The translations under genes were made by a program, and so were the position numbers. Under the pieces are notes generated by a model that saw nothing but the letters and a program-made list of their open reading frames with translations, was not told where the DNA came from and did not search any database. From the sequence record MN022785.1: a stretch of DNA of 64,000 nucleotides; one strand, 5' to 3'. Source of the DNA: Escherichia phage VEc20. Shown here in pieces: positions 2,449 to 55,448 of the stretch (positions are counted from its first letter, which is position 1; every line of letters begins with the position of its first letter).

Positions 2449-4267
2449 ACTGGCTCATCCATTCTTTACGAAGGTCAGCATTATCTCCCATGAGCATTTC
2501 AAAAAGCTCTTTCCAGTTCTCAGGAAGTTTAACAACATCATATACTGGATTTTGAATCATCTCACGATATTCAGATTTTTCCAAAGAGCCAAGTCCTTTA
2601 ATATAACGGATGCTATGTTTAGGTAGAGCATCTTTAGCACTCTCATATTCAGCGACTGTATAAAACCATTCTTGTTTTTTACCAATCTGTGCGATGATTA
2701 CAGGAGTTTTGACAAAGCGAATTCGTCCTTGCTCAAACAGTTCTGGCCAATTACTAAAAAATCCAAGCAGAGAAGGATAAATGCTTCCTAGGCCATCATG
2801 GTCAGCATCAGTCATAATAGCGATATTATGATAATTCAAGTTTTCAGCTTTTTCACCGAGAACTAATCCAGTGATTGCGCAAATATCAAATAGTTCTTTG
2901 TTTTTAAGCATATCTGCATAAGACATACCCCAACTGTTGAGAACTTTACCGCGCAATGGATAACCACCGTGAAGTTCTTTATCACGAACATCAATAAGAT
3001 ATCCGATAGCCGAATCACCCTCAGTCAAGAAAAGAGTAGTGTCAGCATCTTTACCACAAAGATTCGCTTTGATATGTTTATGAACCTTAGCTTTAGATGC
3101 CTTTTTAGCTGCTTTAGTTTCTGCTGCTTTTTCTGCCGCCAATTTACGAGCCAAAGCAGCTTCAATAATTGGCATCAGAATTGCTTCATTATTCAAAATA
3201 GCACGTGAAATCTTTTTAGCATCAAGCTGAATATGACTACGGATTTCACCAAATGGAGAAGTCAAACGCTCTTTAGTTTGAGAATCAAATCGCATGTTTT
3301 TCATATCACGAACAAACATAACGATTGTCAAACATTCTTTAACGCGTGCTTTAGTCACATCAATTTTGAACTTACGTTTGATTTGTGGAATAAGGTCTTC
3401 ACAAATATCATCCATAACGCAGTCAATATGATGGCCACCATTCTTAGTATGAATGTTATTGACGTATGTTAATTGACGAAAACCATCCGGTGAACGACCA
3501 ACCGCAATAGAGCAATTTTCTTGTTCTTGAACAATAGCATGCTCATCATATTGGCGTGCATATTTCTTAAAATTGCCCTGAACCTTTTTACCATTAAAGG
3601 TAAATTGAATATCAGGATAAACTACTGCAAGTGTCTGGAGACGATCTAGTGTAATGTCAAGATAAACTTGGGACAGCTCATTAGTTTCAAATGACATAAA
3701 ATCAGGAATGAAAGTAACACGAGTTCCTTTCCATTTTCCAGGAATAGTTTCCCATGATTTATTTTCCATGCCATTTGAACAACGAACTACAATATTATTT
3801 TGACCATCACCAGTTTCACCGACAAACATCACAGAAAAAATGTTTGTCAAACTAGAACCAACACCATTCATACCGCCAGTGACGCGTTCTTTATCATCAC
3901 CAAAGTTACCACCTGCTTTTGGAATAGTCCATGCAGCAACAGGACCAGGAATTTCTTCACCGGTAGGTGTTTTAACCATCGCTTGTGGAATACCGCGACC
4001 GTTATCTTCAACTGTTACTTGATTGTTTTTAATAGTAACATTAATTTTATTTGCGAATTTAAACTTAGTACGAATACCTTCATCTACTGAGTTATCGATA
4101 ATTTCATCAATAAGCTTAACAAGACCAGGTACATACTGAACACTTTCCCATTTACCAAACAGAAAGCGCTCATGCATTTCATTAGCGGAAGAGCCAATGT
4201 ACATGCCGCTACGCTTTTTGATATGTTCAATATCGCTCAGAATTTTAATTTCATTCTTAATCATCAC
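2447..4267 (-). CDS. 39: DNA topoisomerase II large subunit, uninterrupted (gp39 + gp60 equivalent in one ORF)
   Basis: 606-aa ORF; GHKL ATPase motifs (VEDNGRGIP, GGNFGDDKERVTGGMNGVGSS) plus TOPRIM-like C-terminal part; no internal gap or stop. Confidence 0.9.
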   Translation of the reverse strand: MMIKNEIKILSDIEHIKKRSGMYIGSSANEMHERFLFGKWESVQYVPGLVKLIDEIIDNSVDEGIRTKFKFANKINVTIKNNQVTVEDNGRGIPQAMVKTPTGEEIPGPVAAWTIPKAGGNFGDDKERVTGGMNGVGSSLTNIFSVMFVGETGDGQNNIVVRCSNGMENKSWETIPGKWKGTRVTFIPDFMSFETNELSQVYLDITLDRLQTLAVVYPDIQFTFNGKKVQGNFKKYARQYDEHAIVQEQENCSIAVGRSPDGFRQLTYVNNIHTKNGGHHIDCVMDDICEDLIPQIKRKFKIDVTKARVKECLTIVMFVRDMKNMRFDSQTKERLTSPFGEIRSHIQLDAKKISRAILNNEAILMPIIEAALARKLAAEKAAETKAAKKASKAKVHKHIKANLCGKDADTTLFLTEGDSAIGYLIDVRDKELHGGYPLRGKVLNSWGMSYADMLKNKELFDICAITGLVLGEKAENLNYHNIAIMTDADHDGLGSIYPSLLGFFSNWPELFEQGRIRFVKTPVIIAQIGKKQEWFYTVAEYESAKDALPKHSIRYIKGLGSLEKSEYREMIQNPVYDVVKLPENWKELFEMLMGDNADLRKEWMSQ

Positions 4268-11427: not shown

Positions 11428-11461
11428 TTATACTATAACATTTTTACTTTAACTTGTAAAC
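11428..11461 (-). promoter_or_regulatory. T4 early-type promoter upstream of ORF 10649..11395
   Basis: GTTTAC, 17 nt, TGTTATAGT on minus strand. Confidence 0.45.
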
Positions 11462-11471
11462 AACTTTATGA

Positions 11472-11500
11472 AAAATGCTTTAAAACTTTCATGGTATAAT
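11472..11500 (+). promoter_or_regulatory. plus-strand MotA-box middle-promoter-like element (aaaaaTGCTTTA, 12 nt, TATAAT), antisense to modA
   Basis: TGCTTTA at 11476-11482, 12-nt spacer, TATAAT at 11495-11500 preceded by TGG. Confidence 0.35.
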
Positions 11501-11517
11501 GAATCTAAGTCCTTCCA

Positions 11518-12120
11518 TTATAGATTAAATCCTTCAAAATCAAGAGTATAGATAGTATATGTTGAATACTTTTTGTACTCATATCTATCTGCAATTCTAA
11601 ATACACTTCCAGCTGGTATCATTACTTCTTGTTCATCTGAAACTAATTCCATATTACGATAACGATGACTATCCGGAAACTTAAAGTTTGGATTGTATTC
11701 TTTACAGCGTAGAGCTTTTATAGCATACTCCTGGAAATTGAATACCATAGGAGCTTTGAATTCAAAAATAACTTGTGTGTTATACTCTAAACCGGAAGCA
11801 AAATGTAGAGCTATATTTTTATCATATGAAGCTGATACTACTTTATCAAATATAATAGTATCAATTCCTTGATTTAACACCTGCTTAGTCTCAGCTGGAA
11901 CACCTCTCCAAAGAGGTTTATCGTTTGGAACCAAACGAGATTTGATTATTTCATTTAACCAAGAATGATCGTCTGGTTTATTAGTAATACAATGAATTAA
12001 AAGTTCAATTTCAGATAAATTAAACCCTTCAGAAAGTAATTCTTCACGAATAGAAGCACGCACCGATGCATCCATTGATTTTATTTTAAAATCTTTTAGT
12101 TGCATTACTGAGTATTTCAT
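11518..12120 (-). CDS. modA: ADP-ribosyltransferase ModA
   Basis: 200-aa ORF, size and position match; tandem with 207-aa ORF. Confidence 0.7.
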   Translation of the reverse strand: MKYSVMQLKDFKIKSMDASVRASIREELLSEGFNLSEIELLIHCITNKPDDHSWLNEIIKSRLVPNDKPLWRGVPAETKQVLNQGIDTIIFDKVVSASYDKNIALHFASGLEYNTQVIFEFKAPMVFNFQEYAIKALRCKEYNPNFKFPDSHRYRNMELVSDEQEVMIPAGSVFRIADRYEYKKYSTYTIYTLDFEGFNL

Positions 12121-12740
12121 TCAACTACCTCAATATCATAAACTTTAAATGTTCCAAATGAATCGTGTAATTTTTCTTTTGAAATAGAAGTTATTCTATA
12201 CTTTCCAATTGGAATCATCCATTCTTGTTCACGCACAATCATCATTAAGTTATCAGTACGCTCTGAATCTAGCCCATCAGTATCTTCATACGTGTACTTA
12301 AACTCAGTATTAGGAGAAGAAAGTATAATATCGCTGATATGGTCAGAATAATTAAAAGCTTTATCAGTTTTTAAGCGAAATATTATTTCAGTGAAATATT
12401 CAGCATAAGAAAAAGAACACGCTGTATGCAAACTAGTAGTAAATGAATCTACTCTGTTCGTTGAAAACACTTCTCCAACTTGTAAATCTTTAATGAGTTC
12501 TTTTGTCGATTTTGATATACCACGATATAGCTGATAAGGCGATTTAGTTAAATGCTTTTTAACGATTTTATTCAACTGCTGATGAAGAGCTTCATTCTTT
12601 TTGGCTTCCATACATTGCCAAAGAACTGACTGCTCAAAGTCAGTAAATTTTTCACAGACTTTTTTATACATATCATATTGAAAATCGACACTTTCAGCTT
12701 TTATAGATAACTGTTCAACATCTGCGAGATTAATAATCAT
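12117..12740 (-). CDS. modB: ADP-ribosyltransferase ModB
   Basis: 207-aa ORF, size and position match T4 modB. Confidence 0.7.
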   Translation of the reverse strand: MIINLADVEQLSIKAESVDFQYDMYKKVCEKFTDFEQSVLWQCMEAKKNEALHQQLNKIVKKHLTKSPYQLYRGISKSTKELIKDLQVGEVFSTNRVDSFTTSLHTACSFSYAEYFTEIIFRLKTDKAFNYSDHISDIILSSPNTEFKYTYEDTDGLDSERTDNLMMIVREQEWMIPIGKYRITSISKEKLHDSFGTFKVYDIEVVE

Positions 12741-50538: not shown

Positions 50539-51519
50539 TTATTTCAGAAGAGTAACCTCAGCGATTTCTTCCCAACCGTTTTTGTCGGTCATAATAAAGT
50601 CAGCAAGATAAAGAGCAGTACGCAGTGAAACATTACGTAAACGGTTAACATTGACTTTCATCCATGATAATGCTTTATAAGTTTCTTCATCAGAAAGACC
50701 GCGCTTTTGCATCATGTCGGTTGAAAGAATAACATCTTCAACCCTGACCATAATTTCTTCATTAGTGTGAACACCCAAATCTAAATAAACTGAGCGGGAC
50801 ACTAATGCTTGTAAATGTGGAGCAAGTTTAGTACCACGGTCTAATTCGCGGTCAATGTCAACGTTTGTGATAAAAACAATCGTTCCTTTAAATTCAAACT
50901 CACGCTCAATGCCTTTTTCTTCTAAGTAAGAAGATGCGGTGCTCCAGCAGACTTTGCGGGTCTCTCCGGTGTCCAGAGCAGCTTTCAGAAGATTAAGAAT
51001 GTCCATATCAGAGAAAACATCCACATCATCAATCAAAAGGACAGAATTCTCTTCACGATTATTCCAAAGCTGTTCATAAAGACCGATACCGGAGATTTTA
51101 CCGTTAATGCTTTTATATTCAATGTATCCATTATCATTTGCTTTATTCAAAGCTTTATCTAAAGAATACGTTTTACCAATACCCGCCGCACCAGAGATAA
51201 TTAATGAACGAATGTTTCCGTTAATAATACCATTCGTCATCATTCCCATAACATTAAATCTTTTATTAATGCGGGTTTTCATATCTTCATATGATTCTTT
51301 AACTTCTTCAACTTTTACACCATCATATGAAATGTCTGATTTGTAAACCCAAACACCGCGACGCTTACCGTCAATTTCAACAAAAACTTTACCATCTCCT
51401 TGTGCATCCACCGGAGCATTATCTGGGAACCATTCACCTAAGAGCTCAAAAGTTCCAGAGATTTCTTTACCAAAGTAGATACCCTTATTGATAGTTACAG
51501 TTTTCATTTTATTCTCCAA
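50539..51519 (-). CDS. P-loop AAA-type ATPase of unknown function
   Basis: 326-aa ORF; Walker A GAAGIGKT, Walker B VLLIDDVD. Confidence 0.65.
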   Translation of the reverse strand: MENKMKTVTINKGIYFGKEISGTFELLGEWFPDNAPVDAQGDGKVFVEIDGKRRGVWVYKSDISYDGVKVEEVKESYEDMKTRINKRFNVMGMMTNGIINGNIRSLIISGAAGIGKTYSLDKALNKANDNGYIEYKSINGKISGIGLYEQLWNNREENSVLLIDDVDVFSDMDILNLLKAALDTGETRKVCWSTASSYLEEKGIEREFEFKGTIVFITNVDIDRELDRGTKLAPHLQALVSRSVYLDLGVHTNEEIMVRVEDVILSTDMMQKRGLSDEETYKALSWMKVNVNRLRNVSLRTALYLADFIMTDKNGWEEIAEVTLLK

Positions 51520-51576: not shown

Positions 51577-51840
51577 TTATTTTAATGTTTGCCAAATTTT
51601 TACTGCTTCGCGACGAGATACTTCTACAGCTCCAAGTTCTACAGCTTTTTGGCGTCGCCGAGCGTGTAAGTCATAATGTTTAATGCGTTTATCTTGAAAC
51701 CAAGAACGTTTCATTCCTATTGCTTCTGCCATTTCGTGAAGCTCTTCAATATCTCCATCAGTGAACATATGACAATTTTTAGTTGGATGACCGCGAAGTT
51801 TCCATCCATGATTCATTAAAACATCTACGTAAACTGTCAT
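51577..51840 (-). CDS. hypothetical protein
   Basis: 87-aa ORF. Confidence 0.5.
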   Translation of the reverse strand: MTVYVDVLMNHGWKLRGHPTKNCHMFTDGDIEELHEMAEAIGMKRSWFQDKRIKHYDLHARRRQKAVELGAVEVSRREAVKIWQTLK

Positions 51841-51986
51841 TGATTCTTCTCCAAATAAGTTTCGATAATTTTCTGGGCGAGATAAACCGCGTTATCTTCA
51901 GTTGCGTCTTCTAAGAAACTTTCAAAACACTCTGAAATTTCTTCTGTATCAATCAACTTTTTTACTTCAATTGGTGTAATTTTCAT
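51837..51986 (-). CDS. hypothetical small acidic protein (49 aa)
   Basis: hand-translated MKITPIEVKKLIDTEEISECF...; ATGA overlap with next gene. Confidence 0.35.
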   Translation of the reverse strand: MKITPIEVKKLIDTEEISECFESFLEDATEDNAVYLAQKIIETYLEKNQ

Positions 51987-52054: not shown

Positions 52055-52085
52055 CTTTGTGAAAAATTTTTGAAATAAAAAAGGG
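52055..52085. repeat. 31-bp exact direct repeat copy 1 (ctttgtgaaaaatttttgaaataaaaaaggg); copy 2 at 52675..52705
   Basis: identical 31-mers 620 bp apart, flanking ORF 52111..52611. Confidence 0.8.
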
Positions 52086-52106
52086 GACCTCTAGGGCCCC
52101 TTTTAT
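52085..52106 (-). terminator. stem-loop (aaaagggg ... ccccttttt)
   Basis: 8-bp stem with 10-nt loop, U-tract on both sides. Confidence 0.4.
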
Positions 52107-52110
52107 GCTT

Positions 52111-52611
52111 TTATTCCATTTCTATTATATGCATGCTCTTTTTGCTATCAAAATATATGTTTTTAACTGTTAACTCCGAATTAATTGGCAATAAAAACTC
52201 TCTTTCATAATCCACCATAGAAAGATTATCATAAAGCTTATTAAGCTTATCATCATCAATCTGGCCAGATTCTTCAATTGCGATTAAATTTTCTAAAATT
52301 TCAATCATAGCAGTTGAATAGTCAAAAACGTTTGCATTTTTTAACACTATTAAAACATTAGTCATATAGCGTTCTGCCGCAAATGTTTCAGCTATATGAG
52401 ATTCACTACTAAAGGAAGTTATTCTTTTAAATTTGATTCTCCTATTAACTTCAAACTTATAAGATAGTACTTCCTCTATTGTAAGTCCTCTAAAAAGCAC
52501 GTCTTTAATCTCAAGTTTGTCTTTAATGTAATCATTAACACGCTTATGATTAAAATCATTAATTTTGTTGCCAAGGCATTTCATTAAAATATGCATTGTG
52601 TTTCTCTTCAA
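52111..52611 (-). CDS. hypothetical protein in promoter/stem-loop cassette
   Basis: 166-aa ORF with own early promoter, flanked by hairpins and 31-bp direct repeats. Confidence 0.55.
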   Translation of the reverse strand: MKRNTMHILMKCLGNKINDFNHKRVNDYIKDKLEIKDVLFRGLTIEEVLSYKFEVNRRIKFKRITSFSSESHIAETFAAERYMTNVLIVLKNANVFDYSTAMIEILENLIAIEESGQIDDDKLNKLYDNLSMVDYEREFLLPINSELTVKNIYFDSKKSMHIIEME

Positions 52612-52643: not shown

Positions 52644-52673
52644 ATTATAATATGCTTTATGATAGAAGTAAAC
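52644..52673 (-). promoter_or_regulatory. T4 early-type promoter (GTTTAC, 17 nt, TTATAAT)
   Basis: upstream of ORF 52111..52611. Confidence 0.5.
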
Positions 52674-52674
52674 C

Positions 52675-52705
52675 ACTTTGTGAAAAATTTTTGAAATAAA
52701 AAAGG
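52675..52705. repeat. 31-bp exact direct repeat copy 2
   Basis: identical to 52055..52085. Confidence 0.8.
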
Positions 52706-52721
52706 GAGCCCGAAGGCTCCC
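52704..52721 (-). terminator. GC stem-loop (gggagcc-cgaa-ggctccc)
   Basis: perfect 7-bp stem, UUCG-type loop, after nucleotidyltransferase gene. Confidence 0.45.
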
Positions 52722-52723
52722 TA

Positions 52724-53737
52724 TCATTTATAATAACTTCGGTGGTTTTCAAGATAGACCTTCTCAAGGAAGTCATCCCAGAAACCCATGTCCACTTTTT
52801 GCTGCATACCGTTCTTAGAAGCTTCAGTAGATGCTGCTTCTACTTGATCGACCACATCTTCCAAAAACTCTTGAACGGTTTTAAATGGATGTTTACCCAA
52901 CTTCACGTCGAGAATAAATGGAGCGTCTTGAAGTGGATAAATCAAGTCGCCAGTTTTGTAAATTTCCAATAGTTGGAGTCCACCACGGCAAGCATGACTC
53001 AAAGCTTTCCAGTTAATACCTTCATTGGCTTCGGCCTTACGAGCACGTTCACCATATTCAGCATCTAATTTGTTCAGTGACTGCTTAAGCTCAATAAGAG
53101 AAAGAGTTGTCTGATATTTACGACCCAACACAGTGTAGAACGTTTGTGGACCTGTTTTCTCATGATTATGGAACACCCATTCACAGAATTCATTTTCTGG
53201 AAGACGATGCTTAATATCTTCAACTTTAGTGCGGCGCTGCTTAATAGAACCATCTTCTTGGTAATCAACCCATTGCTCGGGGATTTGATTAACTACTTTC
53301 AATACATCACGTAATGCAGCCAAACGAGAACCCTTAACGCCGTATTTAGAAGCTTGCTTACGGACATATCCTAAATATGATTTCATGTTAGTCGTATAAA
53401 AACGAGAACGATTGTCTTGAATAAACTTCCATACATCAGGCAAATCTGATTTAACCACTAGCTCAGGTGGAGTGTGAAGCATATCCAACGCTACAGTTTC
53501 ACCATCTGCTGCTAATTTAAAGAAATATTTAAGACTGTATAGTTCATGGTCAATATCATCTTTAGTGTTTTTAGATGATGTGTTGTTAGTGTTTTTACTC
53601 ATATGCTCTTTGACATTTCCGATAAGAATATCGCGAGCAGGAGGAACAAAGATTTCTTTAAAATCGACATCAGATTCTGGTGTAGAAGTTCCATAAAGAT
53701 GACTACCAAAATAACTTTTCATTACTGTTTTCATCAT
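52724..53737 (-). CDS. Pol-beta-superfamily nucleotidyltransferase of unknown function
   Basis: 337-aa ORF; N-terminal GSHLYGTSTPESDVDF fits GS-x(9-13)-DxD motif. Confidence 0.55.
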   Translation of the reverse strand: MMKTVMKSYFGSHLYGTSTPESDVDFKEIFVPPARDILIGNVKEHMSKNTNNTSSKNTKDDIDHELYSLKYFFKLAADGETVALDMLHTPPELVVKSDLPDVWKFIQDNRSRFYTTNMKSYLGYVRKQASKYGVKGSRLAALRDVLKVVNQIPEQWVDYQEDGSIKQRRTKVEDIKHRLPENEFCEWVFHNHEKTGPQTFYTVLGRKYQTTLSLIELKQSLNKLDAEYGERARKAEANEGINWKALSHACRGGLQLLEIYKTGDLIYPLQDAPFILDVKLGKHPFKTVQEFLEDVVDQVEAASTEASKNGMQQKVDMGFWDDFLEKVYLENHRSYYK

Positions 53738-54195
53738 TCAGCCTTATATTCAATAACAGGACACACTTTAGCTTTACGAGCTTTTAAAAATTCAACGATA
53801 ATCGATTTCTTGGGTTGAATAGGAGGTAAACCTTTATTTTTCCTATCAATGTTTTCTACGTGTAAAGCATAATCCTTTTTCCATTTATAATCTTTATATT
53901 TTTCACGCAAATGTACAGGAATAACAAATGAACCAATAATAAGTAAAACAAGCAAAATGGCAAGTATAAATGCTGATGGAAGCAAAGTCCATAAACTACC
54001 GAAAATAAGCCATCGTTGTAAGCTTTCTGCACAAATAATTGTTAGCCCTACGAGTATAGCACACCCAAAAATAGAAACGAAAAATGTAGGGATAACAATA
54101 GACCAAAAATATGCGCATAGTGTCTTAGGTCGTTGCCATTCATCGTTAAACAATTTGAATAATTTATAGTGCCAAGAGTTTTCATTAATAATCAT
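53734..54195 (-). CDS. integral membrane protein
   Basis: 153-aa ORF with about 3 transmembrane segments; ATGA overlap with nucleotidyltransferase. Confidence 0.55.
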   Translation of the reverse strand: MIINENSWHYKLFKLFNDEWQRPKTLCAYFWSIVIPTFFVSIFGCAILVGLTIICAESLQRWLIFGSLWTLLPSAFILAILLVLLIIGSFVIPVHLREKYKDYKWKKDYALHVENIDRKNKGLPPIQPKKSIIVEFLKARKAKVCPVIEYKAE

Positions 54196-54197
54196 AA

Positions 54198-54719
54198 CTA
54201 TCCTTTCATTGAAGGCGTAACAGTTGTTAAATACTTAATCATAGCTTCAGCTTCTGATTTTGATAGTGAAATTTCTCCATTGTTTTGACGAATAGAAATA
54301 AAATCCGGATGACGGTCACCACCAGCTTTTAAAACACACATATAAGTATCAGTTTCATCTTCAATATTTGAAATGATTGAAGCAGTTCCACATGAATGCG
54401 GTTTTTGATAAATCAATACAGCTTTTCTTCCGCCATTTGACTGTTCATAAACTTTTAATACATCAAACAAATCACTTCTTTTATCAATAGCTAAAATGTT
54501 ATTTTCATCTTCAATGTTAAATCCTTCGGATACTTCATAAAGTGTCACCCATAAATCGCCAATATCAATAACAGCGTTCACTTTTCCATGACTTTCAAGA
54601 GCATGACAAATTTTCTTGATTTCGTCATAACTCATTTTAATAATATCATCTCCTTGAATAAGAAAGATGTCATTTTTAAATTCAACACGAATTAAACCAC
54701 TTCCACTTGAAATAAACAT
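54198..54719 (-). CDS. hypothetical protein, tandem paralog A
   Basis: 173 aa; C-terminus SKSEAEAMIKYLTTVTPSM resembles next ORF. Confidence 0.5.
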   Translation of the reverse strand: MFISSGSGLIRVEFKNDIFLIQGDDIIKMSYDEIKKICHALESHGKVNAVIDIGDLWVTLYEVSEGFNIEDENNILAIDKRSDLFDVLKVYEQSNGGRKAVLIYQKPHSCGTASIISNIEDETDTYMCVLKAGGDRHPDFISIRQNNGEISLSKSEAEAMIKYLTTVTPSMKG

Positions 54720-54725
54720 ATTTCC

Positions 54726-55283
54726 TCACTTTGAAATCATAGTTGGAATGACAGAATCAAGATAAGTCTTTAGTGCAATAGCTTCGTCTTTGGTAAATGT
54801 GACAATATGTGATCGAAAATCGTCGATTTGGCGAATAGTTAAGACATCTCCCTCTTCATAACATTTTGATACATTTAAAAGAGTTTCATCATTCTGATTG
54901 CAAGAGTTAGTAATAATAGCATTGCAATTTTTGAGCCATTTTAAACTATGTTTTCTTTCATTAGAATAATAAAAATATTTAATCTTAGCTATAAAACTAT
55001 CCCAATGGATAACTGATAAACACATTGACTCACTTTTAATATTAAATCCTGGGCATGAAGAATAAAAATGAATTTTGTGCTCATCATTGATACTTACTAT
55101 TTTATCAGTATAAGGATATTCAATTTGGGTTAAATGAATGATTTCACTAGGCGTAAAATATAGCATATCGTCTTCTTGCGTCAAACGATACATGTTATTT
55201 ACTTTTTCTATAGCCAATTCACCAAAAAGCGGACTAACTTCTAATACTAATCGTTTCATATTGATTCTCTTCGACTCACTCAC
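54726..55283 (-). CDS. hypothetical protein, tandem paralog B
   Basis: 185 aa (GTG start in ORF track); C-terminus TKDEAIALKTYLDSVIPTM. Confidence 0.5.
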   Translation of the reverse strand: MSESKRINMKRLVLEVSPLFGELAIEKVNNMYRLTQEDDMLYFTPSEIIHLTQIEYPYTDKIVSINDEHKIHFYSSCPGFNIKSESMCLSVIHWDSFIAKIKYFYYSNERKHSLKWLKNCNAIITNSCNQNDETLLNVSKCYEEGDVLTIRQIDDFRSHIVTFTKDEAIALKTYLDSVIPTMISK

Positions 55284-55408
55284 AATTACATACTCCTTTG
55301 AATAATATCAATAATGTTGTTCACCAGATTATAAGTAAACATTGGGTAATTATATTGAATCATTACATACACAACAAACAAAACTTTCATTCTCTTCTCC
55401 TTGACAGT

Positions 55409-55448
55409 TGACAAGATTACTATACCATAACCTTGCCAACTTGTAAAC
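55409..55448 (-). promoter_or_regulatory. T4 early-type promoter (GTTTAC, 18 nt, TGGTATAGT)
   Basis: upstream of ORF 54726..55283. Confidence 0.45.

Follow-up and report, generated by a model that had tools for sequence, protein, structure and literature searches.

NrdC.11, an RlaP-family nucleotidyltransferase with a predicted role in mending damaged RNA ends, in Escherichia phage VEc20

Organization of the locus

We analyzed a stretch of 64,000 nucleotides (nt) from Escherichia phage VEc20 (sequence record MN022785.1), referred to below as the window, in which a block of genes at positions 52724-55283 encodes a nucleotidyltransferase (NTase), a small membrane protein, and two further proteins that resemble each other. 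An earlier note, made from the sequence alone, described these four genes as co-oriented, took the ATGA shared by the NTase and membrane protein genes as translational coupling, and compared the pair to nucleotide-signaling modules. Four open reading frames (ORFs), of 337, 153, 173, and 185 amino acids (aa), lie exactly where the note placed them, and all are read from the minus strand. We identify the 337-aa protein as NrdC.11, a template-independent Pol-beta nucleotidyltransferase of the RlaP family, which we predict, with better than even confidence in the RNA-repair reading as a whole, to patch damaged RNA ends. The features of the locus, from upstream to downstream on the minus strand, are as follows.

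55419..55447, minus strand: promoter-like site (TTTACA, 17 nt, TG-TATAGT; 10/12 matches in a consensus scan, plus the extended -10 TG)
55286..55414, minus strand: 42-aa ORF, homologue of T4 mobD.2 (tblastn, 88% identity at the T4 mobD.2 position); the first ORF past the promoter-like site
54726..55283, minus strand: 185-aa ORF, MobD.1 orthologue, GTG start
54198..54719, minus strand: 173-aa ORF, tandem MobD.1 paralog
53734..54195, minus strand: 153-aa ORF, small membrane protein
52724..53737, minus strand: 337-aa ORF, NrdC.11 (RlaP-family NTase)
52703..52722, minus strand: intrinsic terminator-like hairpin (8 bp, 6 of them G-C, UUCG-type loop) with a T-run, right after the NTase stop codon

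The region is colinear, gene for gene, with the nrdC-tk early region of T4, all of its genes are on the minus strand, and 7.4 kb of it is 97 to 98% identical to many Tequatrovirus (T-even) genomes. Because the promoter-like site and the mobD.2 homologue lie upstream and a strong hairpin with a T-run follows the NTase stop codon, the four genes are plausibly the downstream portion of a single transcription unit; the annotation of phage G29 has a terminator at the same place as the hairpin (52722..52703). Two of the start codons allow more than one reading. It is uncertain where the 185-aa ORF begins, with lengths of 177 to 185 aa in other annotations, and the NTase has an alternative ATG one codon downstream, which is the start used in the T4 and G29 annotations (336 aa) and which would still overlap the preceding stop codon by 1 nt. 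The ATGA itself, a 4-nt overlap of the 153-aa stop with the 337-aa start, is present at 53734-53737. It is not distinctive, because 4-nt overlaps make up 22 of the 124 minus-strand junctions in the window (18%), and we therefore reject it as a sign of coupling.

NrdC.11 belongs to the RlaP family

T4 NrdC.11, labeled "nucleotidyltransferase" in RefSeq, shares 97.6% identity with the 337-aa protein, which also matches phrog_388 across its full length. The earlier call of a Pol-beta-type NTase, based on the signature GSHLYGTSTPESDVDF (residues 11-26), was right: the protein matches the Pfam family RlaP (PF10127) over residues 7-135 with 44.6 bits, against a gathering score of 23. The name RlaP is short for "RNA ligase-associating Pol-beta"; the family, credited to Burroughs and Aravind (2016), was defined via its linkage to RNA ligase genes. 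Relatives of the NTase are numerous, forming 3318 clusters at 50% identity in an exhaustive search. We examined conservation in an alignment of 68 relatives (34 to 54% identity), all of which exceed the Pfam RlaP gathering threshold (best E value, 2.2e-19). Both parts of the Pol-beta motif hG[GS]...DxD, here G11-S12 and D23-x-D25, contain residues that are invariant in this alignment (G11, S12, D23, and D25), as is the further carboxylate D63, and D85 is conserved in at least 90% of the sequences. The catalytic acidic residues, on whose conservation the earlier note had staked its reading of the enzyme, are therefore conserved.

The AlphaFold2 (AF2) model of the NTase is confident (predicted local distance difference test [pLDDT], 94.2) and combines an NTase core (residues 1-115) with a long helix, a helical bundle, and, at ~155-209, a beta insert. 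In a viral structure library, the same full-length fold is found in many phages, jumbo phages included, and in giant viruses. A sequence search of PDB copies that do not include PfRlaP, with the single protein and with a clade profile alike, returned no solved relative. We also considered whether the protein could be a CD-NTase, cGAS, MAB21, Cid1, or CCA-adding enzyme and rejected these identities, for which neither hidden Markov models (HMMs; Pfam, NCBIfam, and PADLOC) nor fold comparison gave support. There is no PolyA_pol or PAP-associated Pfam match, and the Foldseek match to Cid1 reached only an E value of 0.14, a probability of 0.10, and a template modeling (TM) score of 0.11. NrdC.11 is already catalogued in T4 and its family has been partly characterized; the window contains another copy and no new kind of system.

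Bacterial relatives lie beside RNA-repair genes

Bacterial chromosomes, which we scanned with a profile built from an 11-sequence alignment, contain full-length homologues of the NTase at 31 to 53% identity. In 16 of 76 such loci, a gene for RtcB, Hen1, or Ro60/TROVE is found no more than 6 kb from the NTase gene. Once neighbors were clustered, these were the only recurrent real partners (RtcB in 12 loci, Hen1 in 6, and Ro60/TROVE in 5), and their identities are supported by Pfam matches (RtcB, 389.6 bits; Hen1_L, 338.8 bits; for the Ro60 neighbor, vWA at 163.5 bits and TROVE at 133.6 bits). The association of RlaP with RNA-repair genes is thus seen directly in bacterial loci; in the phage it exists in trans only, T4 carrying pseT (Pnkp) and rnlA (Rnl1). 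A survey of jumbo phages likewise reported that the distribution of RlaP mirrors that of RNA ligase (PMC7824862).

The biochemistry of the family comes from a December 2025 preprint by Carruthers, Fatma, and Huang (PMC12776372) on two Pseudomonas enzymes, PfRlaP and PaRlaP. Both add 1 to 2 nucleoside monophosphates (NMPs) to RNA 3'-OH ends, favor a mimic of cleaved tRNA and Mn2+, and do not use DNA or protein as acceptors. The assayed enzymes partly restored aminoacylation of a tRNA that was short of one anticodon-loop nucleotide, and the end carried by their product is the 3'-OH required by Rnl1 (PMC12776372). The solved structure of PfRlaP has an N-terminal NTase domain and a C-terminal helical domain, with the terminal helix packed back on the NTase domain. 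NrdC.11 has in common with the family the HMM match, the Pol-beta motif, the combination, in its predicted model, of NTase core and helical domain, and the RNA-repair neighbors of its bacterial homologues.

A probable role in tRNA repair

Based on the biochemistry of bacterial RlaPs and on gene context, we consider it probable that NrdC.11 is an RlaP-type RNA 3'-end NTase that carries out the gap-filling step of T-even tRNA repair against host anticodon nucleases. We infer the RNA substrate, the cooperation with Pnkp and Rnl1, and the role in counter-defense, and the most likely course of events would be the following. A host anticodon nuclease of the RloC type would cut a tRNA and take out a nucleotide, after which the phage Pnkp would heal the ends to a 3'-OH and a 5'-phosphate. 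The two-metal site of NrdC.11 (D23, D25, and D63 or D85) would then extend the 5' fragment at its 3'-OH by one or two NMPs, and Rnl1 would seal the break, so that a fraction of the tRNA would become functional again and late translation could go on. Of the possibilities raised by the earlier note, modification of a nucleic-acid end and a counter-defense enzyme are the ones that agree with this best-supported reading.

Among the closest known counterparts is the repair of PrrC-cleaved tRNA by T4 Pnkp/PseT and Rnl1, which belongs to the same phage type, has the same proposed purpose of undoing host tRNA cleavage, and uses compatible chemistry. The predicted role of NrdC.11 differs in that it would add gap filling, which is needed only against nucleases that remove a nucleotide, as RloC does. 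Loss of the wobble nucleotide, which RloC cuts out, was proposed to be beyond repair by T4 Pnkp and Rnl1 (PMC2610378). If NrdC.11 fills gaps in cleaved tRNAs, the classic T4 pathway of two enzymes, Pnkp and Rnl1, gains a third component. Its targets would be anticodon nucleases that excise a nucleotide, RloC among them; since 2008, proposals have held such nucleases to be repair-proof. The gap-filling idea is already in print as a prediction, and bacterial homologues have given it a partial test. Genome-reduced T4 does without the nrdC.11-mobD.3 segment, which fits an accessory counter-defense gene.

Several observations weigh against this proposal. The available biochemistry is confined to the two Pseudomonas enzymes, which belong to cluster 1a and not to a phage, whereas the preprint lists T4 NrdC.11 as an RlaP of cluster 5 (PMC12776372), and the activity of NrdC.11 is a predicted one. 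Only the N-terminal 130 residues of NrdC.11 align to the Pfam model, so that the C-terminal two thirds of the protein, including the beta insert, fall beyond the alignment. In the phage, the genes for RNA ligase and Pnkp lie ~80 kb from the NTase gene, outside the window, and are neither next to it nor in its operon. Across phage records, the counts by host genus are nearly identical for Pnkp, Rnl1, and the NTase; this co-distribution is weak evidence, as it mostly reflects shared T4-like ancestry. In Tevenvirinae, moreover, the membrane protein gene lies close against the NTase gene, which leaves a small probability of a lineage-specific link between them. Finally, we know of no phenotype of nrdC.11 mutants.

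Other activities for the enzyme

We next weighed activities other than gap filling. NrdC.11 could add 3' tails to RNA for a use outside repair, for example to tag transcripts of the host or the phage for decay or stabilization, or to mend the 3' CCA of tRNAs. In favor of such a use, bacterial RlaPs label RNAs of rRNA, tRNA, and fragment size with any NTP and with modest substrate preference (PMC12776372), and in some Klebsiella-type phages an ORF resembling the C-terminal part of ProQ overlaps the NTase start. An RNA-chaperone-like neighbor of this kind would fit an RNA-directed enzyme. However, the recurrent genomic partners of the family are ligases and end-modifying repair enzymes, we found nothing in NrdC.11 that resembles CCA-adding enzymes or poly(A)/poly(U) polymerases, and the assayed relatives stop after 1 to 2 nt (PMC12776372). 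A tailing function outside repair therefore appears unlikely to us.

We regard as somewhat less likely still that the acceptor of NrdC.11 is a protein or a small molecule, the enzyme either AMPylating a host HEPN-type RNase toxin in the manner of MNT antitoxins or modifying a metabolite in the manner of aminoglycoside NTases. NrdC.11 does resemble kanamycin nucleotidyltransferase/ANT(4') and the minimal NTases of HEPN-MNT systems, but the matches are weak (8 to 10% identity; TM score, ~0.3) and stem from the fold that all minimal NTases share, and those enzymes act on other acceptors, namely antibiotics or a toxin tyrosine. Neither E. coli proteins nor DNA were substrates of the two assayed RlaPs (PMC12776372), and the gene context in bacteria is one of RNA repair.

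The membrane protein is a lineage-specific neighbor

We then asked what the 153-aa protein contributes to the locus. It has hydrophobic stretches at residues 27-57 and 64-96 and a basic C-terminal tail with a net charge of +8, from which it may reasonably be taken, on hydropathy only, as a multi-pass membrane protein with at least two helices, in keeping with the earlier description; the tail is probably cytoplasmic. The protein matches phrog_944 ("membrane protein"), and no domain was found for it in Pfam, NCBIfam, or PADLOC. Its family comprises 23 clusters, all of them from phages and only from T4-like ones, and a search of 5.8 billion proteins returned no bacterial members. Among 47 homologues, the conserved sites, S7, W8, H9, P23, L26, C27, Y29, K143, and C145, lie outside the hydrophobic core, which hints at a functional N-terminal motif and a conserved cysteine pair.

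The pairing of this gene with the NTase gene is variable. Phage records contain the NTase in 1517 cases and the membrane ORF in 873. We examined 78 viral-contig loci in which the NTase is 42 to 99% identical to that of VEc20, judging absence within 4 kb. A homologue of the membrane ORF abuts the NTase gene with a 4-nt overlap in 13 loci, all of them Tevenvirinae with at least 76% NTase identity; in 34, it lies 311 to 2575 nt upstream of the NTase with other ORFs between; and in 31, T4-type genomes included, it is absent. Where the two genes are separated, the NTase start often has its 4-nt overlap with some unrelated ORF that does not encode a membrane protein; this ORF is a ProQ-C-like protein in one group of loci and an HD-domain protein in one locus. 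In 35 of the 47 loci that have a membrane gene, a y05I-like ORF lies immediately before it, so that these two are linked more tightly than the membrane gene is to the NTase. The membrane-family profile gave no matches near the bacterial NTase homologues. The earlier note had named absence of the membrane partner from most relatives as grounds against its reading, and this is largely what we see: it is missing from the bacterial homologues and from 31 phage loci, while in the 34 loci with a displaced copy it persists at a distance.

The locus of T4 illustrates the same variability. NrdC.11 is retained in T4, the 153-aa gene and the 173-aa paralog are both missing, and an HNH homing endonuclease gene, mobD (11430-12209 in the T4 locus, L001), stands exactly in the place that these two ORFs occupy in the window (53734-54719). 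The alternation is of the presence/absence kind that free-standing homing endonucleases typically show. Taken together, these comparisons indicate that the 153-aa membrane protein is a neighbor by lineage-specific synteny and not a required partner of the enzyme. The block as a whole is plausibly the end of a T-even early/middle transcription unit in which accessory genes lie side by side by synteny, without forming a dedicated module.

These data also bear on a possible signaling function. In Hailong, two genes of one operon encode a transmembrane protein and an NTase (PMC13434031); the NTase, HalB, makes oligo-dA that gates the membrane channel HalA. The same gene composition, together with the 4-nt overlap in the 13 Tevenvirinae loci, could suggest that the VEc20 genes are a pair of this type, acting as a switch of the phage's own or supplying a decoy oligonucleotide to a host HalA. 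Such a pair would have to be obligate, yet T4 and the other loci without the membrane gene keep the NTase. The likeness to HalB that we observed is limited to the minimal NTase core (15% identity), and the sequence profile of the clade shows no link to HalB or to any other solved chain. Bacterial homologues of the NTase adjoin RtcB, Hen1, and Ro60 and have an adjacent membrane-like ORF in only 2 of 76 loci, and the membrane protein belongs to a small, phage-only family; 4-nt overlaps are generic in the window, and PADLOC returned no match. An adjacent effector with a nucleotide-sensing domain, as in CBASS, was not found either, the neighbor being a protein without a recognized domain. We consider a Hailong-type pair highly improbable, and we give equally little credence to the narrower proposal that in Tevenvirinae the 153-aa protein and NrdC.11 form a lineage-specific pair, either an NTase-controlled membrane protein or a decoy-oligonucleotide enzyme, alongside or instead of repair. 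With no CD-NTase-type similarity and such variable adjacency, the suggestion of a nucleotide-signaling module lacks support, and the juxtaposition of an NTase and a membrane protein at this locus should not be counted as a candidate module of that kind.

Some loci have other genes at the upstream edge of the NTase. In locus L008, from a distant phage, the NTase start is abutted or overlapped by a 125-aa ORF (3127-3504, plus strand) that matches Phage_ProQ_C_like with 51.6 bits, and L056 and L058 have the same 125-aa ORF at this position. In L089, the gene that abuts or overlaps the NTase start encodes an HD-domain (HD_4) protein (3447-3995, plus strand), and in L018 a 267-aa ORF is inserted between the membrane ORF and the NTase.

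The two MobD.1 paralogs

The two genes at the upstream end of the block encode true paralogs, as the earlier note had recognized. The 185-aa and 173-aa proteins are 27% identical (blastp E value, 2e-8), and both contain the same two Pfam domains at scores far above the gathering score: T4_y05I_N (PF24449) at 133.1 and 118.5 bits and T4_y05I_C (PF24448) at 76 and 82.7 bits, respectively. The 185-aa protein is 87.5% identical to T4 MobD.1, whereas the 173-aa protein is a second, diverged tandem copy that T4 does not have. Relatives of MobD.1 fall into 34 clusters, all from T4-like phages, and the two-copy state is confined to Tequatrovirus-type loci. The Pfam label for y05I, "putative transcription factor," is a name only, and the predicted structure of the MobD.1/y05I paralog is poor (mean pLDDT, 50). 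Searches of NCBIfam and PADLOC returned no match for any of the four proteins of the block. The paralogs are not required partners of NrdC.11.

A shorter form of the y05I protein is found elsewhere. In Klebsiella-, Enterobacter-, and Citrobacter-type loci (L025-L045, L053, L064, and similar), ORFs of 65 to 87 aa lie just upstream of the membrane-ORF homologue and consist of the C-terminal y05I domain alone, at times as two copies in tandem. They end in a conserved TKxEAxAL..YLxSVIPTM.

Flanking genes

Downstream of the block is a 166-aa ORF (52111-52611, minus strand) that is absent from T4 and lies between a promoter-like site (52672..52644) and a terminator-like hairpin (52100..52084) of its own. 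Its product has a match to phrog_832, "RNA polymerase ADP-ribosylase" (E value, 4.9e-24), and an iterated search identified it as a third paralog of the two ModA/ModB-like ORFs at 11518..12120 and 12117..12740. By these matches, it is possibly an extra ADP-ribosyltransferase.

Two more ORFs lie between the nrdC.10 and nrdC.11 homologues, both on the minus strand: an 87-aa DUF4031 protein (51577-51840; Pfam, 77.3 bits) and a 49-aa ORF (51837-51986). Both are absent from T4 at this position. The nrdC.10 homologue itself (50539-51519, minus strand) encodes a P-loop/AAA-like protein of 326 aa, for which the nSTAND3 and AAA_16 matches are weak and below threshold. In the majority of loci whose NTase identity is 50% or more, it keeps its place downstream of the NTase, among them Acinetobacter phages in which the membrane ORF no longer abuts the NTase.

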